Shown piece after piece: positions 3,534 through 20,547 of a stretch of DNA of 40,000 bases. Origin of the DNA: Desulfovibrio sp. OttesenSCG-928-I05 (lineage in GTDB: Bacteria > Desulfobacterota > Desulfovibrionia > Desulfovibrionales > Desulfovibrionaceae). A program made the position numbers and the translations under genes. The notes under the pieces were generated by a model. It did no database searches, was not told the origin of the DNA, and saw nothing but the letters and a program-made list of their open reading frames with translations. The stretch covers positions 1 to 40,000 of the forward strand of contig JAJDHY010000001.1 of the NCBI GenBank assembly GCA_030266385.1, given 5' to 3'. How positions within the stretch are numbered: the stretch's first letter is position 1; each line of letters opens with the position of its first letter.

Positions 3534-3575
3534 CATACCTCTGCGTACCCTGACTTTTTTTTCGGGTCTGGCGGA
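3534..3575. repeat. attL-type direct repeat (ICE end distal to the tRNA)
   Basis: CATACC tct GCGTACCCTGACTT ttttttcgggtc TGGCGGA. It matches 31171-31206 in three blocks of 6, 14 and 7 nt. Confidence 0.7.
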
Positions 3576-3662
3576 ACAAGTTTCCGTACAGGCCTGACAA
3601 ATCATGCTATCCGGTCGAAAAATTCGGCATATATTGCCCCAATTTCAACCAAAGGGAAATGC

Positions 3663-3869
3663 ATGAAACAAATTCTTGAACGGTTTTATTCCGTACTTGG
3701 GAGCCCGTCAAAGGTTGCTTGCTACCTTCAATATTCGGACAGGCAACTCCGAAATATTCGGAAAAAGGTGGAGCTTGGCGAACCGCTCGATCCGCGTGTC
3801 GAGCTTTGGATAAAAACAAAGCACGATCTGCTGCATAACGCCCTCACAATCCAGGGCAAAGGAAAATAA
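3663..3869 (+). CDS. Small basic protein, possible HTH regulator; first gene of the leader operon
   Basis: 68-aa ORF with an SD-like AGGGAAA. The segment SPSKVACYLQYSDRQLRNIRKK looks HTH-like. Confidence 0.5.
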   Translation: MKQILERFYSVLGSPSKVACYLQYSDRQLRNIRKKVELGEPLDPRVELWIKTKHDLLHNALTIQGKGK

Positions 3870-3874
3870 CCCCT

Positions 3875-4189
3875 ATGGACGCCAACAAACGCAAGATAGC
3901 GCGAAACGCGGCGAAAGTTGAATTTCTTGCAAACGCGGAAGAAATTTTGTCGATGCTGGACAAGGGTTTTAACAAATTCAACGTTTATAGCGCACTCACA
4001 GAAAAAGGGCGTCTAACCATGGCCTATCGTTCGTTTTGCTGGAATTTGCAGCAATTCAAAAACCCGGAAAAGAGACAAAAAGAGAAAAAAGACACGCCAA
4101 AATCTATTGCTGCACCCCCCCTGCGGGTACCGGCAAAAAAAGAGGGCTTCGGGCAGCTTGAAGACGTTGATGTAAGCAAACTCGTTTAG
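3875..4189 (+). CDS. traK: TraK-like oriT-binding protein (RP4 leader operon type)
   Basis: 104 aa. Resembles my recollection of RP4 TraK in the N-terminal helix region and the C-terminal GF...D..KL tail. It sits directly upstream of the traL homologue. Confidence 0.65.
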   Translation: MDANKRKIARNAAKVEFLANAEEILSMLDKGFNKFNVYSALTEKGRLTMAYRSFCWNLQQFKNPEKRQKEKKDTPKSIAAPPLRVPAKKEGFGQLEDVDVSKLV

Positions 4190-5004: not shown

Positions 5005-5496
5005 ATGACAGAAGCTATGCAGACTCCCGAAGTGCCGCAAAAAGCAGCTGCCGTGGAAACTCCCGCCCCCGCTGCCGCCGAAACCGAAAAAGAGCCGCTT
5101 TTGCCTGATGGCATTGGGCTGTCCATTGAAAGCGTCCGTGATCTACTGGTGAAAATCCATGACTGCAAGGTATCGCTGGACGATCCGGTGCTGATGGTCG
5201 TTACGATGCTGAACGCCTACCTGGGGGAAGTCCAGACACTTCAAAAGAGACATGAGGCGGGTCTGTCCCGGCTCATGACCGACAAAACCGATGACTACAT
5301 GAAGGGCGTCAAAGAAGCGGTCAAGGCGTTGCAGGAAGGCCTTTCCTCGGCTTCGGTGGAAGGCATCAAGGCGGTTTTCAACGAGCATGATTCCCGCCTG
5401 AAAGCCTTCAAGAGCAATCTTTCCTGGCTTGCGGCCATTACCGCGTGTTCCGCGATTATCAACGTCATTGCGTTCGTGCTGATGGGGGTGCGCTGA
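5005..5496 (+). CDS. TraM-like protein (assigned by position), coiled coil with a C-terminal TM helix
   Basis: ATG at 5005 follows GGGGGG. Its stop overlaps the trbB start (TGATG). C-terminal hydrophobic helix LAAITACSAIINVIAFVLMG. Confidence 0.5.
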   Translation: MTEAMQTPEVPQKAAAVETPAPAAAETEKEPLLPDGIGLSIESVRDLLVKIHDCKVSLDDPVLMVVTMLNAYLGEVQTLQKRHEAGLSRLMTDKTDDYMKGVKEAVKALQEGLSSASVEGIKAVFNEHDSRLKAFKSNLSWLAAITACSAIINVIAFVLMGVR

Positions 5497-6470
5497 TGAT
5501 TGCCGCGCACGAAGATACGCGCCTTCTGGACAATCTGCGCTTTGCCTGCGGGCCGCTGATGGTTGGCGCTCTGGAAGACGAAGGCATTATTGAAATCATG
5601 CTGAACCCGGATTCCTCGCTGTGGATCGAGCGATACGGGCAAGACCATGAACGGATAGGGGAAATTCCGCGAAAAGCGGCGGAATCCATCATGTATCTGG
5701 TGGCAAGCGCCCTCAAACTGACCGTCAACGAAAAGAGTCCCATTGTGGAAGGCGAGTTTCCCCTTGACGGTTCCCGGTTTGAAGGCACGTTTCCGCCCAT
5801 TGTCGGGCCTGGGCCGTCCTTCTCCCTGCGCAAAAAGGCGAGCCGGGTTTTTACCCTGGAAGAATACATGCTTGCCGGTTCCGTCACGGCGGAAGTCGTG
5901 CGCATCATTGAAGACGCGGTGCTGCGCCGCTTGAATATCGTTGTGGTCGGGGGCACATCCAGCGGCAAGACTACCTTCGTCAATGCGGTCATTGACGCGG
6001 TTTTCCGGCTTACGCCTTCGCATCGGCTGCTCATTCTGGAAGATACGGCGGAACTGCAATCCAAAAGCCCCAACTCCGTTTTCCTGCGCACCTCTGTTCT
6101 CGCGGAAGTGGACATGCGAAAGCTGGCGAAAGTCAGTATGCGCTATGCGCCCAAACGTATCCTTGTGGGGGAAGTGCGCGACGCTGCCGCCCTGGAAATG
6201 CTGAAACTCTGGAACACCGGGCATCCGGGGGGAATCTCCACATTTCACGCGGACAGTGCGGAAGAGGCGCTTCCACGCCTGGAAGAACTGGTCGAGGAAG
6301 CGGGGCTTGGCCCGAAGCAAAAGCTCATAGGCAGGGCTGTGGATTTGGCGGTCTACATGGAAAAGACGCCGGATAACCAGCGGCGCATATCGAGCATTGT
6401 GCGGGTCAACGGCTTCAACGCCAAAACGGAAAGCTACAATACCGACGTTCTCTACAGCGTCGCCGCATGA
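5496..6470 (+). CDS. trbB: TrbB/VirB11 secretion ATPase
   Basis: Walker A GGTSSGKTT and the GEVRD and GHPG motifs. The ATG overlaps the upstream stop. Confidence 0.95.
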   Translation: MIAAHEDTRLLDNLRFACGPLMVGALEDEGIIEIMLNPDSSLWIERYGQDHERIGEIPRKAAESIMYLVASALKLTVNEKSPIVEGEFPLDGSRFEGTFPPIVGPGPSFSLRKKASRVFTLEEYMLAGSVTAEVVRIIEDAVLRRLNIVVVGGTSSGKTTFVNAVIDAVFRLTPSHRLLILEDTAELQSKSPNSVFLRTSVLAEVDMRKLAKVSMRYAPKRILVGEVRDAAALEMLKLWNTGHPGGISTFHADSAEEALPRLEELVEEAGLGPKQKLIGRAVDLAVYMEKTPDNQRRISSIVRVNGFNAKTESYNTDVLYSVAA

Positions 6471-6482
6471 AGGCAGGAAAGT

Positions 6483-6701
6483 ATGACCAATATCAATAAC
6501 GCTCTGCCTGAAATTCGGTGCCCGCGCTGTAACAAACTGCTTGCAAAGGGGGTGCTTGACGTCGGGATTATAGAGTTTCAATGCCCTGGTGATAAGTGCC
6601 ACAAAAGAAAGATAATCCTGCGGGCCACGCGCCCCAATCTTGCGCCGCATGACGGCCTCTATGGAGACAGTCATGTACGCAAAACCCCTTCTCAATCGTA
6701 G
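6483..6701 (+). CDS. Mu Com-like zinc-ribbon protein
   Basis: IRCPRCNKLLAKG....IEFQCPGDKCHKRKII matches the Com pattern (C-x2-C-N-K-L-L ... IEI-x-CP-x2-C). The ORF ends 29 nt inside trbC. Confidence 0.75.
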   Translation: MTNINNALPEIRCPRCNKLLAKGVLDVGIIEFQCPGDKCHKRKIILRATRPNLAPHDGLYGDSHVRKTPSQS

Positions 6702-6735
6702 CAACCTTCGTACCCCCGGCCTGGCGCTGCTCGGC
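6617..6735 (+). repeat. Translation-initiation module, copy A (Com tail, SD, ATG, start of signal peptide)
   Basis: 6617-6675 is about 50 of 59 identical to 12806-12864. 6711-6735 is 23 of 25 identical to 12882-12906. Confidence 0.9.
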
Positions 6736-7023
6736 CTGATGGCGTTTGCGCTGTTTTTCCCTGAAATTGCCGCCGCTTCCGGGGGCATCACGGAATTTTC
6801 CAGCCCACTTGAAAAGGTGGTGAATACTGTTACCGGCCCTGCCGGTAAGTGGATTTCCATTGTGGCAATGGCGCTGTGCGGCATCATCTTTATCATGAAT
6901 AAAGATGATATTTCAGGCGGCTTCAAGCTCCTGCTCGGCGTCGTCTTCGGCATCAGCTTCATCGCTTTTGCCGGGAGTATCGTCAATAGCGTGTTTACCT
7001 TCTCCGGGGCGCTGGTGGGGTAA
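6673..7023 (+). CDS. trbC: TrbC/VirB2 pilin precursor
   Basis: SD GGAGA 5 nt upstream of the ATG at 6673, a signal peptide, two TM helices, and the expected position between trbB and trbD. Confidence 0.85.
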   Translation: MYAKPLLNRSNLRTPGLALLGLMAFALFFPEIAAASGGITEFSSPLEKVVNTVTGPAGKWISIVAMALCGIIFIMNKDDISGGFKLLLGVVFGISFIAFAGSIVNSVFTFSGALVG

Positions 7024-7316
7024 TGCGCACTATCCCGATCCATCAATCCCTGCACAGGCACAATCATGTCCTGGGGGCGGAAAGGGAACTGGTGCTGACG
7101 GCAGGGCTTATTGCCCTGCTGGTCGGCATCGGTGGCCTTACCCTCATTTCCATTGTGTCCGCTGCCGTCTTCTGGCTGTTCGCGGTCTTTGCCCTGCGGC
7201 GCATGGCAAAGGCTGATCCGCAAATGTCAAAGGTATGGTTGCGCCATATCAAACAACAGCTTTTTTACCCCTCAAAAACAGGCCGTTGGTGCGTGAACGG
7301 GGGTAAAAAATGCTGA
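7023..7316 (+). CDS. trbD: TrbD/VirB3
   Basis: 97 aa. The pattern GAERELV...GL plus a TM hairpin. TAATG overlap with trbC. Confidence 0.9.
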   Translation: MRTIPIHQSLHRHNHVLGAERELVLTAGLIALLVGIGGLTLISIVSAAVFWLFAVFALRRMAKADPQMSKVWLRHIKQQLFYPSKTGRWCVNGGKKC

Positions 7317-9715
7317 AACTCCATGATTTCCGCAGCAAGGCAAAGGGGCTTTCCGATCTCCTGCCCTATGCCGCGCTCATTGGCCCCGGCGTTATTCTGA
7401 ACAAGGACGGGAGCCTTACCGCCGCATGGGAAGTGCGCGGGCAAGATACTGCCTCGTCCACGCCCGATGAACTCGCATACATCAGCGCCCAGGTGAATCA
7501 GGCCGTGAAACTTCTTGGTACGGGGTGGGTCATGCACATGGATGCCGTGCGCGGTTCCAGCCAAGCCTACCCGGAAGCGCATAAAAGCGCCTTCCCTGAT
7601 CGCATCACGCAAATGATTGACGACGAAAGGCGGCGCTATTTCAGCCGTGACGAATGTTACGGCACGAATACCGTTCTGACAGTAACCTATAAACCTGACT
7701 TTGCTGAACAGCGCATTTCAGCCGGGGTGCATACCGGAAGCGGCATAGAAAAAGCCTTGCAACGCTTTGAAACGACGTTGCAGGAACTTGAAGACGCGCT
7801 TTCGGTTGTCCTGCGCATGAAGCGCCTGGAAGAATACGACGCCTATTATGATGATGGGGAAGCATACCGGCAATCCGATCTGCTTTCGCACATCCAGCAT
7901 TGCGTCAGCGGCAATCTTCACCCCATGCGCGTACCGGATACGCCCATGTACCTTGACGCGCTCCTGGGGAGTGAAGACCTGATCGGGGGCGTGGTTCCCA
8001 AGGTCGGCGGTCAATACGTAATGGTTTTGGGCATTGACGGCTTGCCGCAAGAGTCCTGGCCCGCGATCCTGGTCGAACTTGACAGCCTCCCGATTCAGTA
8101 CCGCTTTTCGACGCGGTTTATCTGCCTCGATCAATATGATGCCGTGAAGGAAATACGTTCGTATTGTAAGGGTTGGCGGCAACAGGTTTTCCGGGTCATT
8201 GACCAATTCCTGAATAACCCCAATGCACGGGCGAACCGTGACGCACTCTTGATGGCGGAAGACGCCGAAACGGCAATGACGGAAGTGCAAGGGGGCTATG
8301 TGGGCGCGGGGTATCTCACGTCCTGCATTGTTCTGCTGCATAACAATCTTGACGTTTTGCAAGATTGGGCGCGGGAGTTGCGCCGCTCAGTGCAAACGCT
8401 CGGCTTCGGCTGCCGGATTGAAAGCGTCAACGCGCTTGAAGCCTGGCTCGGCACACATCCGGGCAACACGTTTGCGAACGTGCGCCGCCCGCTGGTGAAC
8501 ACGCTCAATCTGGCGGATTTGCTGCCCCTGGCAAGCGTCTGGACGGGTGCGCCGGGTGCGCCGTGCCCATTCTACCCGCCCGATAGCCCGCCTTTGGCGG
8601 TCTGCACAACGGACGGGCAAACCCCGTTTTGGCTCAACCTTCATCATGGCGACATAGGCCACACGCTGATTTTCGGGCCTACGGGCGCGGGAAAAAGCAC
8701 CCTCCTTGCGGCGTTGGCCGCGCAGTTCCGGCGTTACCGGAACGCGCAAATATTCGCCTTTGACAAGGGCATGTCCATGTTCCCCTTGTGTCACGGCTCC
8801 GGGGGTACTCATTATAATATCGGGGAATCCTCCGACCTTTCGTTTGCTCCGCTGCAACGGATCAGCGAGTCGGAAGAAGAGTTTTCCTGGGCCGCTGAAT
8901 GGGTGGAAGCCCTGCTTGCATTGCAGGGAGTGACGGTCACACCGGCACACCGCAACGCGATTCATACGGCCCTGGACAGTCTGCGGGCCTCGCCGGAACA
9001 TATGCGGTCTTTGACTGACTTTGTTCACCGGCTGCAAGACATGGGCTTGAAAGAAGCCTTGCGCCATTACACCGAAGCCGGGGCAATGGGGCGGCTGCTC
9101 GATGCCCGGTCGGACAACCTGGGTGTATCCAGCTTCACCACCTTTGAAATTGAAGAACTGATGAACCTGGGGGAGAAAAACCTTATTCCGGTTCTGCTGT
9201 ACCTGTTCAGGCGCATTGAAAAGAGCCTGACCGGGCAACCGACGATCCTGATTCTGGACGAAGCCTGGATCATGCTCGGCCACCCGGTTTTCCGCTCCAA
9301 AATCCGCGAATGGCTGAAAGTCATGCGCAAGGCCAACTGCTGCGTGATTCTGGCGACGCAAAGCCTGTCGGACGCGAAAAATTCCGGCATTCTGGACGTT
9401 CTGACCGAATCCTGCCCCACAAAAATCTTTCTGGCGAACCTTGCGGCACGTCAGGAAGGGCAAGCGGCCCTCTACTACGATATGGGCCTGAATACCCGGC
9501 AAATAGACATCATTTCAAACGCCACTCCCAAGCGGGACTACTACGTTGTGACGCCTGTAGGCCGTCGCAAGATTCAACTCGCGCTTGGGGCTGTAACCCT
9601 GGCTTTTGTCGGTTCCTCCGACAAAGAGAGCATTGCCCGTATCAAAGAGCTTTCCGAAGTTCACGGCCCCGATGGCTGGCAAGATTACTGGCTGCGCGAA
9701 TGTCAGGCGATATGA
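7310..9715 (+). CDS. trbE: TrbE/VirB4 ATPase
   Basis: 801 aa. Walker A GPTGAGKST and Walker B ILILDEAW. Confidence 0.97.
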   Translation: MLKLHDFRSKAKGLSDLLPYAALIGPGVILNKDGSLTAAWEVRGQDTASSTPDELAYISAQVNQAVKLLGTGWVMHMDAVRGSSQAYPEAHKSAFPDRITQMIDDERRRYFSRDECYGTNTVLTVTYKPDFAEQRISAGVHTGSGIEKALQRFETTLQELEDALSVVLRMKRLEEYDAYYDDGEAYRQSDLLSHIQHCVSGNLHPMRVPDTPMYLDALLGSEDLIGGVVPKVGGQYVMVLGIDGLPQESWPAILVELDSLPIQYRFSTRFICLDQYDAVKEIRSYCKGWRQQVFRVIDQFLNNPNARANRDALLMAEDAETAMTEVQGGYVGAGYLTSCIVLLHNNLDVLQDWARELRRSVQTLGFGCRIESVNALEAWLGTHPGNTFANVRRPLVNTLNLADLLPLASVWTGAPGAPCPFYPPDSPPLAVCTTDGQTPFWLNLHHGDIGHTLIFGPTGAGKSTLLAALAAQFRRYRNAQIFAFDKGMSMFPLCHGSGGTHYNIGESSDLSFAPLQRISESEEEFSWAAEWVEALLALQGVTVTPAHRNAIHTALDSLRASPEHMRSLTDFVHRLQDMGLKEALRHYTEAGAMGRLLDARSDNLGVSSFTTFEIEELMNLGEKNLIPVLLYLFRRIEKSLTGQPTILILDEAWIMLGHPVFRSKIREWLKVMRKANCCVILATQSLSDAKNSGILDVLTESCPTKIFLANLAARQEGQAALYYDMGLNTRQIDIISNATPKRDYYVVTPVGRRKIQLALGAVTLAFVGSSDKESIARIKELSEVHGPDGWQDYWLRECQAI

Positions 9716-9725
9716 GGACACATAT

Positions 9726-10529
9726 ATGAAGAAAGTACTTTTCCTTTCCGCGCTGTTCGTAGTGCTGATGGTCGGGAATGCAAGCGCAGCCTCGTTCTTC
9801 TGTAAGAACTGCTCAACGAACCTTGTGCAACTTCTGGATAGGGTCACGAACATGGAACAGCTTTCAAGCCTGCTGAAACAGTATGATGAAGCTGTAACGC
9901 AAACCGCGCAACAAATAGAAATGGTGCGGCAGAATATCCAGCAATACGCCAATATGCTGCAAAACACGGCGCAACTCCCGGCAAACCTTGTCAACGAACT
10001 GAAAGGCCGGTTGACGCAACTTGCAAGCCTTACGGGGCAACTGAAAACACTACGTGGTGACGTGGTTTCGCTTGGATCTATCTTTACCCAACTGTACCCG
10101 GAAAGCGGCCTTTTTGGCGATATTGCCGGGGCCAGCCCGGAACAAATGGCGAAGGCGGCGGAAAAGTATCAGGCATCTTGGGATGCGTGGTCTGAAAACG
10201 TGGATCGGGCGTCACAAGCGGCTTTTCAACTCTCCGGTGCGCAACTGAACGAACTGCAACGGGACGCCTCCAAGTTCCAATCCTACCTGGACAATCTGCT
10301 GTCCACGCCTGACGGGCAAATGAAGGCAATTATGGCGGGCAACCAGCTTTCCGCGCTGCAAGTACAGGAAGCCCGCCAACTGCGGGAACTCATGGCAACG
10401 CAAGTGCAGAACTCCATCAGTTCACAAATGAAGCAGGAGAAAGAAAGCCAGATGGGGCAAGAAGCCTGGCGCGACGCTACGAAAGTAGACGGCCTCGGCG
10501 GGCTGAACTCCAAGGCCGATCCATTTTAG
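9726..10529 (+). CDS. trbJ: TrbJ/VirB5-like protein
   Basis: Signal peptide MKKVLFLSALFVVLMVGNASA, a coiled-coil body, and the expected position after trbE. Confidence 0.85.
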   Translation: MKKVLFLSALFVVLMVGNASAASFFCKNCSTNLVQLLDRVTNMEQLSSLLKQYDEAVTQTAQQIEMVRQNIQQYANMLQNTAQLPANLVNELKGRLTQLASLTGQLKTLRGDVVSLGSIFTQLYPESGLFGDIAGASPEQMAKAAEKYQASWDAWSENVDRASQAAFQLSGAQLNELQRDASKFQSYLDNLLSTPDGQMKAIMAGNQLSALQVQEARQLRELMATQVQNSISSQMKQEKESQMGQEAWRDATKVDGLGGLNSKADPF

Positions 10530-10531
10530 TC

Positions 10532-10927
10532 CTAGAACGGGTCAGCCTTGGACGTAAGCGGGTCTTGTTCCGGTTGTGAGGGGGCGGAGAGAATATTTCT
10601 TACTTCGTCCTGGGTTGTGCGGACAAAGGTTTTCGTTCCGAAAATATGATTTGTGAATTGCGCCCAATTCGCGTCGTGAAGCACCGCTACCAGAATGGGG
10701 TCTTTCTCTCCCGTCCTTCTCACAACGTAACGGTTTTTATCCTCTTCAATCGTGATAGCAGCGGAGTTTTCGCCTATGGATATATTGTCTTCACTTATTA
10801 CGACGGTGCGTAGTTTGCCGGTTAAAGAATCGGTTTCCGTGCTTTTCCATGCGCCTGTCACATCAGCGGCCATAGCTGAAAAGGGGAACGCGAACAGCGC
10901 AACCAAAAGCAATGCGGTTTTCTTCAT
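10532..10927 (-). CDS. Secreted protein of unknown function in the trbK position, opposite strand
   Basis: Sec signal peptide MKKTALLLVALFAFPFSAMA. GC is visibly lower than the flanking trb genes. Ends in LTSKADPF. Convergent with trbJ, with a 2-nt gap. Confidence 0.6.
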   Translation of the reverse strand: MKKTALLLVALFAFPFSAMAADVTGAWKSTETDSLTGKLRTVVISEDNISIGENSAAITIEEDKNRYVVRRTGEKDPILVAVLHDANWAQFTNHIFGTKTFVRTTQDEVRNILSAPSQPEQDPLTSKADPF

Positions 10928-10946
10928 CGGACTGATTACCCTTTGT

Positions 10947-12047
10947 GTGTTGGTGGTTTCGTTGTTGAATCCCACAACGGCCTTTGCCGCTGCCGACGCG
11001 GATTTTGTATCAACTTTGGTCAAGGAGTTCTACACTAAAACTTCGGCCTGGGAGCCGGTTCTGCGCAAGTATGCGGTACTGGTTTTTCAATGGCTCGTTA
11101 CCCTGGAAGTCTGTTTCTTGGGCATAAAAGCTGCCCTGAACCGCGATCAGATCGCGGACATATTCAAGCAGTTCGTTATGCTTTTACTGGCGGCGGGCTT
11201 TTTTCTGGCGGTTATCAACAACTATCAGGAATGGTCGTGGAATCTGATTAACGGCCTGAAAGGCATAGGCCTGCAACTCAATTCCTCGCAAATCTCTTCG
11301 GATGGCCCTTTTCTGGCGGGTATGAAGCTGGTGAAGCTGATTCTCTCCAAGCTCTCCGTGTGGTCGCCGGGCAATTCCATTGCCTTGTTGGTGGCGGCGC
11401 TCGTTATCATCGTCTGTTTCGCCCTGATTTCCGCGCAAGTGGTCTTAATCAAGTGCGAAGCCATGATTGCCATGATGGCCGCGCTTATTCTGGTGGGATT
11501 CGGCGGGTCTGCCTTCTTTCGGGACTATGCGATAAACGCGCTTCGCTATGTTCTCTCCGTTGCCTTCAAGCTCTTTGTCATGCAGTTGGTTTTGTCGGTC
11601 GGCATACAGTTCATTGAATCCTTCAATACTGCGGCGGCTGAACTGCAAGACATTTTCGTGATTATCGGCGCGTCCGTCGTCCTTCTGGCCCTGGTCAAAT
11701 CGCTCCCCGATGTTGTTTCCGGCATTATTCACGGCTCCCACGTCAACGGGGGCAATCTCCTGGGCGCTGCCGCTGCTGTGGGCGGCACGGCCCTGGCCGC
11801 TGGCGCTCTAGCTGTCGGCGGTGCGCAAAACATTCAGAACGTCAAAGACGCCTCAAAGATTGCGAACACCGAAGGCAAAAGCGGATTCGGCAAACTCGCC
11901 AGTATGGCCGGTTCCATGATGGGGGCGCGGCGTGACGCGAAAAGCGGCGGGGAACGGTCGCTAACCTCCCGCACACGCTCGGAAATGCAGGAAAGGGTTC
12001 ACAAGGCGACGATGGCGGCAAACCCTCAAAACAAAGGTAGTGAATAA
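10947..12047 (+). CDS. trbL: TrbL/VirB6 (start uncertain)
   Basis: Multi-TM protein with a Gly/Ala-rich C-terminus. Similarity to RP4 TrbL begins near AAADADFV. No ATG lies between 10776 and the mature region, so the candidate starts are GTG 10947, TTG 10950 and GTG 10953. Confidence 0.85.
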   Translation: MLVVSLLNPTTAFAAADADFVSTLVKEFYTKTSAWEPVLRKYAVLVFQWLVTLEVCFLGIKAALNRDQIADIFKQFVMLLLAAGFFLAVINNYQEWSWNLINGLKGIGLQLNSSQISSDGPFLAGMKLVKLILSKLSVWSPGNSIALLVAALVIIVCFALISAQVVLIKCEAMIAMMAALILVGFGGSAFFRDYAINALRYVLSVAFKLFVMQLVLSVGIQFIESFNTAAAELQDIFVIIGASVVLLALVKSLPDVVSGIIHGSHVNGGNLLGAAAAVGGTALAAGALAVGGAQNIQNVKDASKIANTEGKSGFGKLASMAGSMMGARRDAKSGGERSLTSRTRSEMQERVHKATMAANPQNKGSE

Positions 12048-12778
12048 TGGGTTGGTTCAAGAAAGAAGCCGCTCCCAGGCCCGCAAAGGATTCCGGGAGA
12101 AATCCCTACTTTGACGGGCGGCAGGAATGGCTTGAACGATACGGCTCCTATATCAGCCGAGCTAACCAGTGGCGCATTTTCAGCGTCCTTGCGGTGCTGG
12201 CCCTGCTTGTTTCCCTGTCCTGCAACTATGTGCAGTCCTCCCAGGTCAAGGCGGTTCCTTACATCATTGAAGTGGATCAGCTTGGCAAAATCGGCGCGGT
12301 GGCAAGGGCGGACTCCGCCAGTTCGACGCCTCGGCGGCTCATTCAGGCAGAAATTGCACAGTGTATCAGCTCATGGCGGACGGTCACAGCGGACGTGGAA
12401 CTGCAACAAAAAATGATCGACCGGCTTTCATATTTCATGGCGGGTGCAGCAAAGGGCGTTATGCGCGAGTGGTACGAAACGAACAATCCCTATGAAATTG
12501 CCAAGTCCGGCAAGCTGGTACACGTTGAAATCAAGGGGCTTCCCCTGCCTGTCAGCGGCGATTCCTACCGGGTGGAATGGACGGAAACGGTCAGAAGCCA
12601 CGCCGGTATCGTCCTTGACTCCAACCAGTTTGAGGCCACGGTGACGATCCAGATCCAGCCGCCGACGCAGGATGTGGTGATTCTGCGTAACCCCGGCGGC
12701 ATCTACCTGACCGCCATAAGCGCCGGAAAGGTCATTGGCTCCACCGCTCCGAAACTGCCCGAACCGCAAGGGCAATAG
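12047..12778 (+). CDS. trbF: TrbF/VirB8
   Basis: NPYFDGRQEWLERYG motif plus a single TM helix. Confidence 0.9.
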   Translation: MGWFKKEAAPRPAKDSGRNPYFDGRQEWLERYGSYISRANQWRIFSVLAVLALLVSLSCNYVQSSQVKAVPYIIEVDQLGKIGAVARADSASSTPRRLIQAEIAQCISSWRTVTADVELQQKMIDRLSYFMAGAAKGVMREWYETNNPYEIAKSGKLVHVEIKGLPLPVSGDSYRVEWTETVRSHAGIVLDSNQFEATVTIQIQPPTQDVVILRNPGGIYLTAISAGKVIGSTAPKLPEPQGQ

Positions 12779-13815: not shown

Positions 13816-14351
13816 TGCGTAGCCTCCTTCTTCCTCTTCTGCTGTTTGCTGTGCTGTTTGCTTCCGGTTGCGCGGGCAAGGGCTTTCATGGCTCCTATTA
13901 CGGCGAAGTGCCGCAAAATGCCGCGCCGTCCATGATTGCCGCCGATGCGGCGGGTTATGTTGTCGGCCTGTACCCTCCTGGACATACGAAGCTTCAAATA
14001 CTGAATGCCGAAAAGGCGGATAATGCCTTTGCCATCGCCTTTGAAAACGGCTTGCGTGGTGAAGGCTTCACAATCCTGTCCGCAACGGGCGTTCCGGCTG
14101 ATGCCGACGGGTGCGTTGCGGTCGCCTATACCCTGGATGTTCTGGAAAAGGACGCCGCCTACTATCTGCAACTGCGGTTCAGCGACGGCAAAGCCGTTTC
14201 CAGGGCGTATTCCGCAAGCGGACAGCCGGAAGCGGGCCGAAGCGCCACGCCGCATGATTTCAAGCGTCCTCTCCTTAAACGGGTGGAAGAGAAAGCGCGC
14301 CGCGCCTACTCGTCTACTGTGGATAAGTTCGGGGGCGACAATGACAGATAA
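13815..14351 (+). CDS. trbH: TrbH lipoprotein (VirB7-like role)
   Basis: Lipobox LFASGC after a signal peptide. Lies between trbG and trbI. Confidence 0.8.
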   Translation: MRSLLLPLLLFAVLFASGCAGKGFHGSYYGEVPQNAAPSMIAADAAGYVVGLYPPGHTKLQILNAEKADNAFAIAFENGLRGEGFTILSATGVPADADGCVAVAYTLDVLEKDAAYYLQLRFSDGKAVSRAYSASGQPEAGRSATPHDFKRPLLKRVEEKARRAYSSTVDKFGGDNDR

Positions 14352-15573
14352 ATCCCCTGACAGTCTGATCATGCCCGCTGAAAAGCGCATTACCGCCTTC
14401 AAGCTCTCCCGCTGGCCTTTGTATGCCGTGCTGCTCGGCGCGGGCCTCCTGATCGCCGTCCTGGTCTACAGCGTCAACTTTGCGCACAACGAAGAAGACG
14501 ACGGCAAAACGACAAAGCCCGTAGACATTACAGAACAGGAAAAACCGCTTCTCATGGGCGAAGGCCGGGGGCTGAATTTGCTGCCTCCTTCCAATACGGC
14601 GATTGTCCAGCCCGATTTGCCCGTTCCGGCTGCGAACAAGAAAGAGCCGTTGATCATTGTTCAGCCGTCGGGCGAACACTCGGAACAATATCGGCAAGAG
14701 CTTGAAAACTTACGGCGCATGAAGGCGCAAGCGCAGTTGGAAGCCCTTTCCGCGCCTATCGGCGCGAAAAAAGGCGAAGCTGCCGCAAGCCAGAACCTTG
14801 CGGAGCGCCCGGACGGCGTTGCTGGTCGGGGCGCTGCTCCCGGTTCCTCTTCCGTCACGCTGCCGGTGCAACCGAGTGAAAACTACGATCCTGCTGCGGC
14901 AAAGGACAAAGAAGGTTTCTTTGGCCGGGCCGGTGCTGACGGCTCTTGGATTTCCCCGCATGTACGGACACAAGGGCAACCATATGAACTGAAAACCGGG
15001 GCTGTGGTTCCCGCCGCTCTGGTGACGGGCATAAACAGCGAATTGCCGGGAAGCATTACCGCACAAGTAACGCAAAACGTCTACGATACAGCCTGGGGGC
15101 GGCATCTGCTCATTCCCCAAGGCTCAAAACTCGTAGGGGCTTACGATTCCCGCGTGGTTTACGGGCAATCCAGGGTGCTTGTGGCCTGGAACCGGATCAT
15201 TTTCCCCGATGGCTCGTCAATCACCCTTGAGGCCATGCCTGGGGCCGATCAGAGCGGCTATGCCGGATATAACGACAAGGTAAACAACCACTATCTGCGG
15301 ATCTTCGGCTCGGCCTTCCTTATGTCGCTGATCTCCGGGGGCATGTCCTATGCTGTCGATAGCTTGGATGCGTCCGGCGGAGACAGTGATACGCCCTCAA
15401 TGCAGCAAGAAATGGGTACGGCCCTGGCTTCACAGCTTGGGCAAGCCTCCCTGCGCCTTCTGGAAAAAAATATTTCCATTGCGCCCACTCTGGAAATTCG
15501 CCCTGGTTACGCTTTTAACGTGGTCATCACCAAAGACCTCGTTTTTGAGCGGCCCTTTAAGGCATGGCGTTAG
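14341..15573 (+). CDS. trbI: TrbI/VirB10
   Basis: Start at MTDKSPD (14341), overlapping trbH by 11 nt. TM helix, Pro-rich linker, conserved C-terminal VirB10 domain. Confidence 0.93.
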   Translation: MTDKSPDSLIMPAEKRITAFKLSRWPLYAVLLGAGLLIAVLVYSVNFAHNEEDDGKTTKPVDITEQEKPLLMGEGRGLNLLPPSNTAIVQPDLPVPAANKKEPLIIVQPSGEHSEQYRQELENLRRMKAQAQLEALSAPIGAKKGEAAASQNLAERPDGVAGRGAAPGSSSVTLPVQPSENYDPAAAKDKEGFFGRAGADGSWISPHVRTQGQPYELKTGAVVPAALVTGINSELPGSITAQVTQNVYDTAWGRHLLIPQGSKLVGAYDSRVVYGQSRVLVAWNRIIFPDGSSITLEAMPGADQSGYAGYNDKVNNHYLRIFGSAFLMSLISGGMSYAVDSLDASGGDSDTPSMQQEMGTALASQLGQASLRLLEKNISIAPTLEIRPGYAFNVVITKDLVFERPFKAWR

Positions 15574-15581
15574 GGGGTCGT

Positions 15582-17636
15582 ATGACTGACACAATTCAGC
15601 AATACGGCCTGGGCGGCGGTGCCGGGGTTTCGGAAAGGAAACCGCGCTGGTGGTATGCGGCGTTGCTGGTCGGCCTGTCCGTCTTTTCTATGGGGCTGGC
15701 GACGCAACGGGTAGCGGCCTATTTTGACTTCCATCAGGCATTGGGCAAGCCCCTGGCGGCAGGCCTCTATGCTCCGTGGGCAATCTTCGGCTGGCAAGCC
15801 CGCTTTCTGGCTCAAGATACTTATGGCTTCATGGAAACGGCGATAACGCACAGCCAAGCCCTCTTTCTGGTTCCGCAATTCCTGATTATCGGCACATGGC
15901 TTTTCTGCATGAAAAGCCTACACGGCAATGAGCAGCTTCACGGTTCGGCGCGGTGGGCCACGGAGCCGGAAATCCGGCTCATGGGCTACTTTGAGGGGGC
16001 CGGGGTTTACATTGGCGGCTATATGCGAAAACTCGCCGGGGCCGCGCTTCTGCGGGCTTCTCTTTTGGGGAAGCCCAAAGAAAGGCAAATGTACTTGCGG
16101 CACAATGGGCCGGAACATCTGCTTGTGTTCGCGCCGACACGAAGCGGCAAGGGCGTGGGGTTGATTCTGCCGACGCTCCTTGCCTGGGAAGGCTCGGCCC
16201 TGGTGCTGGACATCAAGGGTGAGAACTGGGCTTTGACTGCCGGATTCCGGCGCTCGATGGGACAAAAGGTGCTGCGCTTTGACCCTTCGGACTCGTCCGG
16301 GGCATCGGCCTGTTTCAACCCCCTGGAAGAAATACGCCTTGATTCCCTCTTGGCTATTCCTGATGCGCAAAATATCGCCTCAATGCTGGTAGACCCCGAA
16401 GGCAAAGGGCTTGACGATCACTGGTCAAAAGCCGGTTTCGCCATGCTTGGCGGCTCTCTCCTGCATTGCTGCATTATGACGATGGCGAAAGAGAAGCGGG
16501 CGGCAACGCTCTATGACCTTTCGTGCATGTTGGCGGACGAAAACCGCACCATTGAAGAGTTGTTCAATGAAATGGTTGCGGCTCCCCATGCGGCACTGCT
16601 GCAAGAGATATTCCCGCAAAGCGATACTACGGAATACGGCGCGAAAGCCCATACCTTCATTGCGTCGTCGGCGCGGGAGATGTTGAACAAAGCCGAAAAC
16701 GAGGCAAGCGGCGTCATAAGCACGGTTCTGGTCAATCTGGCCCTGTACCGCGATCCGGTGGTAGCCCTGAATACGTCCAGGTGCGATTTCAGGATTCACG
16801 ACCTGATGAACCATGACGCGCCGGTAAACCTGTATCTGGTCATATCCCCCGCCGACATTGATCGGGTGCGGCCTCTGATCCGCCTGATGGTGGACATGAT
16901 TGTGCGCCGCACCTGCGCGAAAATGGAGTTTGCGGACGGTTCCAGCGTCAAGTCATACAAGCACAGGCTTTTGCTGCTGCTCGACGAGTTTACGAGCCTC
17001 GGCAAGCTCCCGATCATGGAAAAGGCTCTTGCGTATATCGCTGGCTACGGCGGCAAGGTCTATATCATCGTTCAGGACATTACCCAACTCAACGGCGTCT
17101 ACGGACGGGAAAACGCCCTGATGGCAAACTGCCATATCAGGCTGGCTTATGCGCCGAACACCGTAGACACTGCGAATACCCTGTCGGAAATGACCGGCAA
17201 AACAACGGTTGTAGACAAGAAGGTATCGCTTTCCGGCTCCCGGTCGGGGCACATGAAAAACGCTTCTGTCAGCATCAATGAAACTGCGCGGCCCTTACTG
17301 ACGCCTGACGAATGTATGCGCCTTCCTGGGCCGGTCAAAGACGGCCTGGGCCGGGTGGTAAAGCCGGGTGACATGCTCATTTTCACCGCTGGCAAGCCGC
17401 CCATTTACGGAAGGCAGATATTGTACTTCCTCGATCCGGTCTTCTCGGCACGGTCAAAAATCCGCGCTCCGGGTCTGACTACGGAATATCCAAGCGGGGT
17501 TTCCGATTCCCTGCATTTCACGATGCCGGTGATCCGTCAGGCTACGGCAAGCCAGACTGCCGCGCCCGTGGGCGGCATGGCGGCTGATCCGGCTCCCGAA
17601 AAACAAGAAGGCGGCTCTTATGAATACTTTCAATAA
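15582..17636 (+). CDS. traG: TraG/VirD4 type IV coupling protein
   Basis: Two N-terminal TM helices, Walker A APTRSGKGVG and Walker B LLLLDEF. ATG at 15582 follows GGGGG. Confidence 0.95.
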   Translation: MTDTIQQYGLGGGAGVSERKPRWWYAALLVGLSVFSMGLATQRVAAYFDFHQALGKPLAAGLYAPWAIFGWQARFLAQDTYGFMETAITHSQALFLVPQFLIIGTWLFCMKSLHGNEQLHGSARWATEPEIRLMGYFEGAGVYIGGYMRKLAGAALLRASLLGKPKERQMYLRHNGPEHLLVFAPTRSGKGVGLILPTLLAWEGSALVLDIKGENWALTAGFRRSMGQKVLRFDPSDSSGASACFNPLEEIRLDSLLAIPDAQNIASMLVDPEGKGLDDHWSKAGFAMLGGSLLHCCIMTMAKEKRAATLYDLSCMLADENRTIEELFNEMVAAPHAALLQEIFPQSDTTEYGAKAHTFIASSAREMLNKAENEASGVISTVLVNLALYRDPVVALNTSRCDFRIHDLMNHDAPVNLYLVISPADIDRVRPLIRLMVDMIVRRTCAKMEFADGSSVKSYKHRLLLLLDEFTSLGKLPIMEKALAYIAGYGGKVYIIVQDITQLNGVYGRENALMANCHIRLAYAPNTVDTANTLSEMTGKTTVVDKKVSLSGSRSGHMKNASVSINETARPLLTPDECMRLPGPVKDGLGRVVKPGDMLIFTAGKPPIYGRQILYFLDPVFSARSKIRAPGLTTEYPSGVSDSLHFTMPVIRQATASQTAAPVGGMAADPAPEKQEGGSYEYFQ

Positions 17637-18979: not shown

Positions 18980-19163
18980 ACGCAACAATCATGCGCGGCC
19001 CATGAAGCACCCGCCGCGATCCGCGTCTGCGGCCCGTCGCATGGCGCGGCGTTTGATTCCCGTCCTGGTCGATGAACAGCAAGCCGTATCCGTGACAGAT
19101 CTGGTGGAAAATCGAATTCTCACAGTAAACGGCAAAGGAGAAGTAATGTATGCAGGGGAATAA
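18963..19163 (+). CDS. Possible small basic protein (66 aa) bridging traF and ardC
   Basis: Overlaps both neighbours. No motif. Coding status uncertain. Confidence 0.25.
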   Translation: MMGKSKRNNHARPMKHPPRSASAARRMARRLIPVLVDEQQAVSVTDLVENRILTVNGKGEVMYAGE

Positions 19164-20547
19164 CAACACATTTGCGTTTCACAAAGATTTGACCGCCACA
19201 ATGCGCGAAGGCTTACGCGGAAGCGGCTTGCCCTTCCAGCGCGAGACAACCGGGCAGTTGCCATATAACCAAGTCACCGGGACGCAATACAACGTCCAGA
19301 ACCTTATCCCGCTTGCCATCGCGGCGGAAAAGGCCGCAAAGGAACAGGGGATACCCGCGAAAGACGCTGATATGCGCTTTATGACGCTGAAACAGGCCAA
19401 TTCGCAAGGCTTGTCCGTCATGCAAGGGGCGAAGGCGACGAAGATAGCCTTCCTTACATGGACGGACAAAGAGCCTGTCTTGGGCCAGAACGGCGAACCG
19501 GAAGTAAGCGAAGACGGCAAACAGAAAATGCAGGCCGTACAACTGGACAAGCCGATATTAAGGGCCGGTAATCTCTTTCATGCCTGGGATATCAAGGGCA
19601 ACGGCTTGCAATACGGGCGCGGAAAGAGCGCGGAAGAAAACGAAGCCGCGCTTGACCGGGCGGAGGCCTTGATAAAGGCATCCGGGGCCGTCATTGTCCA
19701 TGATCCCAAGGTCAAGGAAGCGTTCTATGACCGCTTCAAAGATCGGATCAACATGCCGCCTGTTGATTCCTTTCCTTCGCGTGAAGCTCTGATAGGCGAG
19801 ACAGTGAACCAGCTTGCGCACTGGACGGGCCATGAATCCAGGCTTGACCGGCAAAGCGGCCCTAACGGTTCGTCATACCGGAGCCGGGAAGAACTGACTA
19901 CCGGCTTGGGGGCTTGGGCCGTCCTGAACTCCTTGGGCGTTACCGGCGCGACGTTTGACAGCCGCAACCGGCATGTGCCGGGAATGGATAAGCTGCTTGA
20001 AGGCAGTCAGTATGAGGCAATGCGCTGCTGCAAGGCCGCTGACCAGATACGCGATCACCTGATGGGTCTGGAGCGGAAAAAAGACATTACGGCGGAAGTT
20101 TCGCAGGAAGCGGAACTTGAAGCCGGTTCAAGGACTGTTACCGAAGGCAAGCCTACGCATGAAATGCCGAGTATGCAGGTTATGACGCCGGAACAGGAGT
20201 TAGCCAAGGCCATACAGGACGCGGGCCTGGAATTGGGCGGCAAACCTGTAATCTGGACGGGCGAAACGGTTGTGCTGGAAAAAGGCAAGGGCACGTATTC
20301 CGCAACGAAAGACGTAATACCGGAAGCGACAATACGGAACCATGAAACCGGCATAAGGGTAAGTTGGGTGGCGTCGGGGCACAAGCTCACAACGGAAGCC
20401 GTCAAAATGCAGGAGAAAAAGACGCAAACCGTTCGTAAGGAACGCCAGACAAAGCGCGAACAGGCGAAAGCGGCGGAAAAGAGCCTTGAAGCCAAAATGC
20501 CGCCTCCCGCCAAAAGCAAAGGCCAGTCCAGGGGGTTAGGCTTATGA
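19150..20547 (+). CDS. ardC: ArdC-like antirestriction protein with a degenerate metalloprotease motif
   Basis: The N-terminal ssDNA-binding pattern is present (LPYNQVTGTQYNVQNL ... MTLKQANSQGLSVMQGAK). The central ...NQLAHWTGHESRLDR sits where ArdC has HExxHWTGH. SD AAGGAGAA. Confidence 0.8.
   Translation: MQGNNNTFAFHKDLTATMREGLRGSGLPFQRETTGQLPYNQVTGTQYNVQNLIPLAIAAEKAAKEQGIPAKDADMRFMTLKQANSQGLSVMQGAKATKIAFLTWTDKEPVLGQNGEPEVSEDGKQKMQAVQLDKPILRAGNLFHAWDIKGNGLQYGRGKSAEENEAALDRAEALIKASGAVIVHDPKVKEAFYDRFKDRINMPPVDSFPSREALIGETVNQLAHWTGHESRLDRQSGPNGSSYRSREELTTGLGAWAVLNSLGVTGATFDSRNRHVPGMDKLLEGSQYEAMRCCKAADQIRDHLMGLERKKDITAEVSQEAELEAGSRTVTEGKPTHEMPSMQVMTPEQELAKAIQDAGLELGGKPVIWTGETVVLEKGKGTYSATKDVIPEATIRNHETGIRVSWVASGHKLTTEAVKMQEKKTQTVRKERQTKREQAKAAEKSLEAKMPPPAKSKGQSRGLGL

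Follow-up and report, generated by a model that had tools for sequence, protein, structure and literature searches.

Nearly all conjugative plasmids and ICEs practise entry exclusion, which shapes the spread of resistance and other traits. For the MPF_T systems (IncP, IncN, IncW, Ti and their relatives) we know of no established donor-side target or specificity determinant of TrbK/Eex. A position of the exclusion gene between virB5/trbJ and virB6/trbL has been stated as a rule (PMC8923210). TrbJ and TrbK, singly or jointly, can exclude or protect from the recipient side (PMC3907764; PMC11045733; bioRxiv 10.64898/2026.09.24.754286). For the Ti plasmid the two proteins are described as synergistic in entry exclusion in a passage of PMC3907764 that cites Cho et al. 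2009, and the C-terminal region of IncP-1 TrbK is described as essential for exclusion in a passage of PMC8923210 that cites Haase 1996. VirB5 itself docks on VirB6 in the stalk (PMC9259494). VirB6 homologues are also the donor partners that a 2025 review lists for the exclusion proteins of other T4SS types, and it lists none for MPF_T (PMC12282955).

The locus described here is part of a 40,000-nucleotide stretch from Desulfovibrio sp. OttesenSCG-928-I05, referred to as the window. The genes identified around trbJ are trbB, trbC, trbE, trbL, trbF (VirB8), trbI and that of a coupling protein, and the position of trbJ fits the operon order trbB-C-D-E-J-(K)-L-F-G-H-I (Table 1). TrbJ matches the TIGR02780 TrbJ_Ti model with 114.4 bits (cut-off 100.55) over residues 3-247 of 267 and has 444 homologues at E <= 1e-10, including several Desulfovibrio proteins named TrbJ. 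The AF2 model of TrbJ is all-helical, with the last helix spanning residues 195-253. The tail beyond it lies outside the stretch covered by the TIGR02780 match. Of 120 TrbJ homologues, 119 end in DPF, mostly as [AS]K[PA]DPF, and these include proteins from elements with no gene in the trbK slot. The tail is thus an ancestral feature of TrbJ, and a strongly conserved one.

The slot between trbJ (end 10529) and trbL is occupied by a gene at 10532-10927 that sits opposite the operon strand. It is convergent with trbJ and either divergent from trbL or overlapping it, depending on where trbL begins. The start could be the ATG at 10776 (with a GGAG RBS) or a GTG at 10947/10953. The ATG and its RBS are conserved in the related loci L076, L077 and L001 and also in L074, which has lost the convergent gene. 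Translation from this ATG would make trbL overlap the convergent gene antisense by 152 nt.

A preliminary description of this DNA had drawn attention to the convergent gene ends, claiming that both encode SKADPF followed by a stop codon, 2 nt apart, and that they form a 21-bp inverted repeat with four synonymous wobble mismatches. The sequence reads exactly so in both arms. The mismatches are at arm positions 9, 12, 15 and 18, and all are third-codon transitions. The chance of such a placement had been put at 1 in 81, which is (1/3)^4 and inexact; the exact value for four mismatches in 21 positions all falling in the seven third positions is 35/5985, or about 1 in 171. Including the residues just before SKADPF, the two proteins share seven of eight residues (L-N/T-S-K-A-D-P-F). 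The window contains 769 stop-to-stop ORFs of 30 codons or more, and trbJ and the convergent ORF are the only two that terminate in DPF.

Table 1. Coordinates of the trbJ junction, its neighbouring genes and the parts of their products, numbered from the first base of the window.
Feature	Position	Strand	Description
trbE (VirB4 ATPase)	7310..9715	+	Operon neighbour upstream of trbJ; Pfam CagE_TrbE_VirB
trbJ (VirB5-like, P-type T4SS)	9726..10529	+	267 aa + stop; TIGR02780
TrbJ disordered C-terminal tail	10485..10526	+	Residues 254-267, ...DGLGGLNSKADPF; AF2 coil, pLDDT about 37-40
RNA/DNA hairpin from both gene ends	10497..10564	.	
trbJ 3' end	10503-10529	+	CTG AAC TCC AAG GCC GAT CCA TTT TAG
Left arm of 21-nt inverted repeat	10509..10529	+	trbJ SKADPF codons + TAG
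Spacer between the two stop codons	10530-10531		2 bases, tc
Convergent gene, trbK/eex slot	10532..10927	-	131-aa precursor; predicted periplasmic beta-barrel with TrbJ-like tail
Convergent gene stop codon	10532-10534	-	
Right arm of 21-nt inverted repeat	10532..10552	-	SKADPF codons of the convergent gene + TAG
Convergent gene last codons	10552 down to 10532	-	TCC AAG GCT GAC CCG TTC TAG
Convergent protein tail	10535..10585	-	Residues 115-131, ...SQPEQDPLTSKADPF; low-confidence, mostly coil, AF2
Eight-strand beta-barrel core, then helix 106-114	10616..10855	-	Core residues 25-104; AF2
Signal peptide of convergent protein	10868..10927	-	MKKTALLLVALFAFPFSAMA; predicted cleavage after AMA; read from sequence
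trbL (VirB6-like)	10776..12047	+	TIGR02783 TrbL_P, 196 bits

One concern is whether the convergent gene exists at all. It might be an antisense open frame within an extended trbL leader. The gene callers skipped it in L076 and L077, calling a long trbL there instead, and a word-indexed protein search returned a single homologue among 5.8 billion called proteins. However, orthologues were found in L076 (85% identity), L077 (75%) and L001 (64%). Over the four orthologues dN/dS is 0.16-0.32, and the start codon, an RBS-like AAGGG and the signal peptide are kept. An exhaustive profile search recovered a family of 23 members, mostly lipoproteins with a GAWK motif, and the AF2 model built from a 21-sequence alignment has a mean pLDDT of 86 (92-98 in the core). 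The orthologues, the constraint, the conserved signal peptide and the confident fold model together indicate that this is a real gene under constraint, and that the ORF is no gene is extremely improbable.

The product is predicted to be exported by Sec and to form a periplasmic beta-barrel protein about 110 residues long. Its signal peptide ends in ..SAMA/AD and the window protein has no lipobox cysteine, whereas 15 of the 23 aligned relatives have one at that position (L-x-x-C). A GxW motif lies on the first strand of the barrel. Foldseek returned weak calycin/FABP-like matches to the barrel (CRBP/FABP, U-Omp19 and Tp0435; best E = 0.005, TM 0.36-0.42) and no fold family was assigned. The C-terminal tail is probably disordered, going by the model, in which pLDDT is 86 for residues 111-120, 65 for residues 121-130 and 70 for residue 131. 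Pfam has no match to the convergent protein, and the NCBIfam TrbK/EexN models have none to the window protein at E <= 0.01. TrbK/Eex families are also absent from the list of families that the 21-member alignment matched at E <= 0.1. A blastn search of 9600-12100 against plasmids gave no match.

The gene is dispensable, since the closest relative (L074/L075, with a TrbJ 93% identical) has lost it and many relatives never possessed a gene in the trbK slot.

What links the convergent protein to TrbJ is its tail. The preliminary description had proposed aligning homologues of both proteins to see whether the shared tail co-varies, and it does so in dozens of conjugation systems. Tails were compared in 22 TrbJ/VirB5 tail classes, with the neighbour defined as the small envelope protein encoded beside trbJ, and a class passed when the cognate tail score exceeded the 99th percentile (21.2) of non-cognate pairs. 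The neighbour carries the cognate tail in 16 of the 22 classes, and none of 200,000 permutations reached the observed score sum. The window pair scores 29 against the threshold of 21.2. The tails are wholly unlike between classes (DPF, YSKPVP, IRLY, PRW, GMPxIQ and others). Textbook exclusion proteins encoded on the trbJ strand are among the classes, namely TrbK of Ti and IncP-1 plasmids and EexN of R388. In the barrel family the pairs, with TrbJ given first, are SKADPF/SKADPF in the window and L076, SKPDPF/SKADPF in L077, SKRDPF/SKKDPF in L001, NDDGF/NDDGF in L039, DRRGEAL/DRRHEPL in L049 and FPSLY/FPKLF in L057. Two further matches were predicted before they were looked up and both were borne out: ATPAPF/ASPVPFP (L066) and DRRNDPL/DRRNEPL (L068). 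Two other proteins were not usable as tests (P0132 of L069, with no adjoining trbJ, and P0137 of L067, where the contig ends directly after). The comparison shows that when the cognate TrbJ tail differs from one lineage to the next, the neighbour tail differs with it.

The effect is not restricted to barrels or to convergent genes. Unrelated small lipoproteins encoded in the trbK slot reproduce as many as 20 residues of the TrbJ tail, as in WQSATSTDGYDFSKYSEAVP / WKEATDTSGYDFSKYSKPVP. Co-oriented pairs with common tails occur on Ti-type plasmids (three examples), in IncP-1 (two) and in R388, as well as on plasmids of Proteus, Klebsiella oxytoca and Enterobacter hormaechei. The gene with the shared tail is upstream of trbJ in L040. 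A shared RBS or overlap sequence at co-oriented junctions was considered as a source of the similarity and rejected; the similarity extends to as many as 24 residues, and convergent and upstream arrangements, which have no such junction, match too. No report of the tail-sharing rule was found in the literature searched, older key papers being outside its reach.

Homologues lacking the tail had been named beforehand as evidence against its importance, and here the outcome is divided. All three orthologues of the convergent gene keep it, even as the DNA arms drift. However, a distant barrel clade in the same slot (L014, L015, L018-20, L023, L024, L030 and L032) is missing a TrbJ-like tail, and so is a Desulfotalea plasmid protein in that slot. 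The tail is therefore not obligatory.

The last tail residue is aromatic in 17 of the 22 classes, which recalls the C-terminal signal found on outer-membrane proteins. That the tail serves as a general host signal was rejected, since such a signal would not co-vary with the cognate TrbJ.

Could the shared tail be a functionless relic, left behind when the trbJ 3' end was recently duplicated in inverted orientation or underwent gene conversion? The window arms are still identical at 17 of 21 positions, the tail-coding stretches of L040 are nearly identical in DNA, and the trbJ tail codons of L074 equal the reverse-gene arm of the window. However, the tail peptide is retained in both genes across orthologues at dS 0.5-1.0. 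Third-codon positions mismatch in 64% of cases and synonymous tail sites are saturated in most loci, but the peptides still match. The matching also follows TrbJ tails that are no longer recognisably alike in different lineages. A relic is thus largely refuted by the comparative sequence data and must be considered very improbable.

The other alternative is that the nucleic acid is what is selected, as a bidirectional terminator, an mRNA 3'-end stabiliser or a recombination site, with the peptides a side effect. The strong RNA hairpin that had been claimed for the junction is indeed predicted by folding (-31.4 kcal/mol, z = -3.5 on the + strand; -27.6 kcal/mol, z = -3.1 on the - strand). Hairpins are strong at several other convergent loci as well, with z from -2.8 to -8.6 when the window is included. 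In addition, all four arm mismatches are transitions, so each leaves a G-U pair in one transcript or the other. Nevertheless, the codons do not behave as a selected hairpin would require. Over 345 tail codons, mismatches at codon positions 1/2/3 number 111/77/221. At identical degenerate residues in 20 convergent loci the same codon is used 78 times out of 202, against 79.6 expected, and this chance-level codon identity argues that selection acts on the peptide. Switches between Ser TCN and AGY, and between AAA and CGC at a Lys/Arg position in L001 (CGC in trbJ, AAA in its neighbour), break the pairing and spare the peptide. The L001 hairpin is weak at only -18.6 kcal/mol. In the window the intrinsic terminator scan reports no site at the hairpin, and there is no T-run 3' of the stem on either strand. 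Since the hairpin is internal to the trb operon, termination there would also leave trbL through trbI untranscribed. Finally, tails are shared equally by co-oriented pairs and by the upstream gene, where no hairpin forms.

The codon comparison shows selection on the amino-acid sequence of both tails. It bears out the earlier suggestion that the peptide and not the hairpin is under selection, as do the orthologue tails kept while the DNA drifts, the co-variation in 16 of 22 classes and the sharing in co-oriented pairs. The hairpin and the inverted repeat are a by-product, which arises when two convergent genes encode one peptide in a common register, and selection for the hairpin itself is largely refuted, with very little probability left to it.

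What would a periplasmic protein do with a copy of the TrbJ tail? The reading we favour, at a probability of about 0.58, is that the convergent protein is a TrbK/Eex-like exclusion factor and that it presents a decoy of this tail. The TrbJ tail would be a short linear docking motif for some site in the T4SS, most likely on the TrbL/VirB6 platform under VirB5 or on a neighbouring TrbJ protomer. Where a cell already has the element, the convergent protein would show the decoy motif in its periplasm. If a donor of that element then engages the cell, the decoy may fill the tail-binding site of the incoming pilus-tip/stalk complex, and its occupancy would block productive transfer. Specificity for self could come from co-evolution of the tail and its site. 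The antisense orientation would allow expression from a promoter of its own, independent of the trb operon and possibly in opposition to it. A scan of 9500-11400 found no sigma-70-like promoter, and no RNA run was found to contain the sequence. The entry-exclusion or competitor role suggested in the preliminary description gains much weight because the bona fide exclusion proteins TrbK of Ti and IncP-1 and EexN of R388 copy tails too.

A second functional explanation deserves attention, although we consider it unlikely by comparison. The tail might be an assembly or sorting motif that brings TrbJ and its neighbour to one T4SS component, such as TrbL, within the same cell. On this view the neighbour would serve as an accessory subunit or regulate pilus biogenesis, perhaps by limiting TrbJ loading, and would not act as an exclusion factor on the recipient side. 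Co-evolution with a common receptor would explain the co-variation and the peptide-level selection equally well, and the convergent gene is wedged between trbJ and trbL, probably overlapping the trbL start. What does not fit is that TrbK and EexN follow the tail rule yet are dispensable for transfer and act in recipients. In addition, the gene is absent from many close and apparently complete trb operons.

An exclusion decoy at this locus raises a broader and more tentative possibility, to which we give somewhat less than even odds. Perhaps copying of the VirB5/TrbJ tail is the general specificity code of MPF_T entry exclusion, spanning IncP, IncW and probably IncN, as well as Ti/rhizobial plasmids and Desulfobacterota elements. 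If so, the tail would be a portable label of self, with a docking site on the T4SS stalk or tip that co-evolves with it, and exclusion proteins of unrelated folds would do no more than carry it. Exclusion by TrbJ itself, when recipients produce it, would be explained as well. Tail swaps should re-programme which element is excluded, and the donor-side target of TrbK/Eex should be findable through the binding partner of the tail.

The tail-sharing rule leads to the hypothesis that the determinant is a C-terminal peptide of 6-25 residues copied from the cognate VirB5, and it would unify the scattered reports of exclusion by both TrbJ and TrbK. It also offers a sequence signature for exclusion genes of unrelated folds, several of which were missed by gene callers (L076, L077). 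With the present locus the known exclusion modules would gain a beta-barrel family and an antisense gene arrangement, both of them new. In short, the copied tail hints at how conjugative elements shut out their own kind.

How does the window protein compare with described systems? Like classical TrbK and EexN it is encoded in the slot beside trbJ, but it is not on the operon strand, has no lipobox and does not match their family models. In the TraS/TraG (F-like), Eex/TraG (SXT) and YddJ/ConG (ICEBs1) systems a recipient envelope protein recognises a cognate component of the donor T4SS, and specificity resides in short variable segments (PMC12282955). In these systems, however, the donor partner is a VirB6 homologue and mimicry of a donor subunit is not described.

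The EexN family (IncW/IncN; R388, pKM101) has its gene between virB5 (trwJ) and virB6 (trwI). The R388 EexN tail, ..QGDGMPKIR, resembles the TrwJ tail, ..GNQGMPTIQ, although the match is short and, with a score of 16, stays under the 99th percentile for non-cognate pairs. EexN differs in that it is an unrelated 77-aa lipoprotein, co-oriented within a VirB-type and not a Trb-type operon. TrbK of IncP-1 (RP4, R751, pLME1) is likewise a small exported envelope protein from the trbJ-trbL slot, and its tail resembles that of the cognate TrbJ (..EYRASPARNW / ..SFKPSEPKSW in pLME1; ..GDFVPSPDRSW / ..GEFKASPEKEW in an IncP-1-type pair from Methylophaga). However, it is encoded on the operon strand, and its mature form of about 50 residues is lipid-anchored and without a barrel. 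It resembles the window protein neither in sequence nor by profile, and the window protein has no lipobox cysteine. The clearest tail sharing seen is that of Ti/rhizobial TrbK, which occupies the same slot and matches over about 24 residues (..RREKFFNAPTNDIRGGQTMEPRW / ..HRERFFEGDPDRDVRGGQEMKPRW). This TrbK differs in being co-oriented, in overlapping both trbJ and trbL, and in having an N-terminal transmembrane helix as anchor and no barrel.

The last comparison comes from outside conjugation. Tpf (XAC2611, DUF4189) of the Xanthomonas antibacterial T4SS has a disulfide-rich DUF4189 fold and belongs to an effector-delivery system, and tail mimicry has not been reported for it. Nevertheless, Tpf is a protein of the target-cell periplasm that confers kin-specific protection and binds VirB5 directly (bioRxiv 10.64898/2026.05.09.723464). 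This binding provides a precedent for exclusion centred on VirB5.

The window DNA comes from an insect-gut metagenome and carries a P-type conjugation module (trb genes, coupling protein, ArdC, topoisomerase III and relaxase); the nearest named relatives of its TrbJ are from Desulfovibrio. A convergent gene occupies the slot between trbJ and trbL, the trbK/eex position of classical plasmids, and the two stop codons are separated by two bases. The preliminary description held that the shared SKADPF ends differ at wobble positions only, and this is correct. Four mismatches separate the 21-nt arms (10509-10529 and 10532-10552), each of them a synonymous third-position transition; the exact chance of such a placement is 35/5985 (about 1 in 171) and not 1 in 81. 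A DPF end occurs in no other ORF of the window.

Features of the conjugation module and its surroundings in the window
Feature	Position	Strand	Remark
trbB	5445-6470		
trbC	6640-7023		
trbE	7310-9715		
trbJ	9726-10529	+	C-terminus LNSKADPF-TAG
slot gene	10532-10927	-	C-terminus LTSKADPF-TAG
trbL	probable start ATG 10776	+	
trbF	12047-12778		
trbG			part of trb module
trbI	14005-15573		
TraG-type coupling protein	15564-17636		
ArdC-like anti-restriction/metallopeptidase	19150-20547		
topoisomerase III	20629-22425		
MobA/VirD2-type relaxase	24653-26344	-	
ABC-F type ATPase	31970-33985	-	

The slot protein has no match in Pfam or NCBIfam, and a word-indexed search returned a sole homologue, P0002 (64% identity), encoded at the equivalent convergent site of locus L001. 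Two further orthologues lie on contigs of the nearest TrbJ relatives, in L076 (3310-3702, minus strand, 85% identity) and L077 (3301-3693, minus strand, 75%). Both are uncalled in the source annotations, where an over-long trbL is called instead, and gaps in gene calling partly explain why the family seems so rare (one match in 5.8 billion proteins). Pairwise dN/dS among the four orthologues is 0.16-0.32, in or near the trbJ range (0.09-0.14), and all four have a signal peptide (MKK-hydrophobic-AxA). The slot ORF is a real gene with an exported product; that it is no gene at all, as the missing annotations might imply, is very improbable. When 1.84 billion representatives were searched with a profile, the family grew to 23 proteins of 108-139 aa, mostly lipoproteins whose L-x-x-C lipobox is directly followed by an invariant G-x-W-K motif; the lipobox cysteine is absent from the window protein and P0123. 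A confident AlphaFold2 model built with the family alignment (mean pLDDT 86) has eight beta-strands (25-104), a helix (106-114) and a poorly ordered tail (115-131). Foldseek found only a weak calycin-like resemblance.

Which gene is the source of the tail? A DPF end, mostly [AS]K[PA]DPF, is present in 119 of 120 TrbJ homologues among those listed and persists in close relatives with no gene between trbJ and trbL. The TIGR02780 match stops short of it, and AlphaFold2 places it in low-confidence coil past the last helix of TrbJ. Together these observations make the tail an ancestral, conserved and flexible end of TrbJ. Therefore, it is the neighbour gene that copies TrbJ and not the reverse. In the models, both tails are flexible ends. 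TrbJ and the copy alike end in an aromatic residue (F, Y or W) in 17 of the 22 tail classes, which resembles the C-terminal aromatic signals of outer-membrane proteins.

The preliminary description proposed a check for tail co-variation, and this bore it out. The comparison covered 61 genomic loci with a TrbJ alignment. In many Desulfovibrionaceae and Desulfobulbales elements the slot is filled by a convergently encoded small exported protein, whose tail matches that of the local TrbJ although the tails are unrelated from locus to locus (see the table of tails). The same copying occurs in L039, L042, L044, L049, L050, L055 and L057. The variable residue in L001 is Arg (CGC) in TrbJ and Lys (AAA) in the neighbour, a conservative change requiring three base differences. 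Two predictions were made from odd-tailed family members before their contigs were checked, and both held: P0138 (..ASPVPFP) adjoins a TrbJ ending ..ATPAPF, and P0142 (..DRRNEPL) one ending ..DRRNDPL. With one representative for each of the 22 classes, 16 had a cognate score above the 99th percentile of non-cognate pairs, and the observed sum was reached by 0 of 200,000 permutations. Since the barrel family does not include the small lipoproteins of Desulfobulbales, which are unrelated to it, cognate tails are carried by at least six mutually unrelated protein bodies.

C-terminal tails of TrbJ/VirB5 and of the neighbouring slot protein
Locus or element	TrbJ/VirB5	Neighbour
Convergent		
Window, L076	SKADPF	SKADPF
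L077	SKPDPF	SKADPF
L001	SKRDPF	SKKDPF
L012	WQSATSTDGYDFSKYSEAVP	WKEATDTSGYDFSKYSKPVP
L026	WKKATTTTDYDSSRYKEPLP	WKKATKTTEYDSSRYHKPLK
L041	GVSAETAKPMPDNSF	GVSAETAKKMPDNSF
L046	ATKTEILNSGDDNSGTIRLY	ATKNEILNKGDDNSGKIRLY
L056	MGFDPYK	KGFDPYK
Co-oriented		
Ti-type (Agrobacterium, Mesorhizobium)	..RREKFFNAPTNDIRGGQTMEPRW	..HRERFFEGDPDRDVRGGQEMKPRW
Bradyrhizobium	..GGQEMRPRW	..NGQEMRPRW
IncP-1 pLME1	..EYRASPARNW	..SFKPSEPKSW
Methylophaga IncP	..GDFVPSPDRSW	..GEFKASPEKEW
R388 (TrwJ, EexN)	..GNQGMPTIQ	..GDGMPKIR
Proteus pL902	..TGSNKGY	..TGRDKGY
K. oxytoca p2990	..MRTWSFRPSPADKY	..MRQWEFKPSPESNY
E. hormaechei	..FEGLDKPTNRAKSKGY	..YKGMDQPTDRTKSKEY

One alternative is that the repeat is kept for the hairpin it forms. 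The predicted hairpin at the junction is indeed strong (-31.4 kcal/mol, z = -3.5), as anticipated, but no U-tract follows it and a terminator scan did not call it. The codons also speak for the peptide. In 20 convergent loci, with 345 aligned tail codons, there are 111, 77 and 221 mismatches at positions 1, 2 and 3, and serine frequently switches between TCN and AGY. The same codon is used at 78 of 202 identical degenerate residues, where 79.6 +/- 6.6 are expected from each locus's codon usage. Codon identity is thus at chance, no constraint joins the DNA arms and the peptide alone is kept. The decisive control is provided by co-oriented pairs, in which the tail-coding stretches are direct repeats and a hairpin is impossible; these share tails just as convergent pairs do. 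The original claim of selection on the peptide rather than the hairpin therefore stands, and the tail copy is maintained and updated by such selection. The hairpin is a most improbable explanation, and so is a reading of the copy as a relic.

A third arrangement is found in L040, where a gene upstream of trbJ and on its strand (3544-3972, plus strand), with trbE on the other side, encodes a membrane-anchored protein that ends in NFEGLDLTPRDDPAF, compared with NFEGLDLTPKDDPAF in TrbJ. The tail-coding DNA is nearly identical in the two genes, so this copy may be recent. In the TrbK of a Pannonibacter plasmid (L080, 2130-2339), 17 further residues, acidic and glycine-rich, extend past GGQEMRPRW, and the TrbJ-like motif is thus not always at the extreme C-terminus.

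The rule is not universal, and tail sharing is absent in four classes. Homologues lacking the tail had been named as evidence against the proposal. None occurs among the window, L076, L077 and L001, but a clade without a TrbJ-like tail does exist (L014, L015, L018-20, L023 and L032, with L024 and L030 similar). By hhalign (98% probability) it is homologous to the barrel family, the slot-protein relatives with the predicted eight-strand fold. Its proteins end directly past the helix and its slot ORFs overlap the trbJ stop by 4 nt. Either the tail is dispensable there or these proteins work differently. The slot protein of a Desulfotalea plasmid also has no shared tail.

The start of trbL is probably ATG 10776. 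It is preceded by a GGAG RBS; L076, L077, L001 and the slot-gene-less L074 conserve both, and the alternatives GTG 10947 and 10953 have no RBS. With this start, trbL and the 5' half of the slot gene would overlap in antisense by 152 nt (10776-10927, both strands). The slot gene runs against the trb operon, whose transcripts must therefore pass through it to reach trbL. Given this layout, the slot gene and the trb genes downstream may be expressed independently, possibly reciprocally.

In L074/L075, the nearest relative of the window element (TrbJ 93% identical), the slot gene has been lost; what remains (L074 3305-3394, L075 1655-1744) is an 18-residue piece from its middle (AITIEEDK...-like), together with a GC-rich inverted repeat that is new. 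The trbJ tail codons of this relative (TCC AAG GCT GAC CCG TTC TAG) equal the window's reverse-gene arm and not its trbJ arm, which could be chance or past exchange between arms. In the three closest relatives, a Dam-family (PF05869) gene of 145 aa separates trbE from trbJ (L074 2046-2483, L075 396-833, L076 2047-2484). The window lacks it, with trbE ending at 9715 and trbJ beginning at 9726.

What might a copied tail do? VirB5 forms the pilus tip and docks on a VirB6 pentamer (PMC9259494), and in Xanthomonas it is bound by a periplasmic protection factor (bioRxiv 10.64898/2026.05.09.723464). Perhaps the tail serves VirB5 as a docking motif, recognised by a co-evolving site on the stalk or tip. 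The slot protein, by presenting a decoy tail in the periplasm of element-carrying cells, would then jam an incoming cognate apparatus. We put the probability of this exclusion-decoy reading at 0.55-0.6. The main rival, clearly less probable, is that the tail brings TrbJ and the slot protein to a common partner within one cell, in an assembly or regulatory role. Exclusion by TrbJ itself would also be accounted for by a decoy. In RP4, trbK alone gives ~3.5-fold exclusion and trbJ plus trbK ~10^4-fold (bioRxiv 10.64898/2026.09.24.754286), and trbJ and trbK are the only ones of the tested RP4 genes to shield recipients from the RP4 T4SS (PMC11045733). Joint action of TrbJ and TrbK in exclusion is described for Ti plasmids (PMC3907764), and for MPF_T systems the donor partner of exclusion proteins is not listed (PMC12282955).

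A shared TrbJ/TrbK or VirB5/Eex tail is not mentioned in the searchable literature, older primary papers lying outside the search, and no description of a general tail-copying rule was found there; the Ti-plasmid similarity, over 24 residues, may be obvious enough to have been noticed earlier. Judged from the aligned tails, the rule extends to experimentally established exclusion factors. We class the window feature as an entry-exclusion-type module in which both the protein family and the gene orientation are new.
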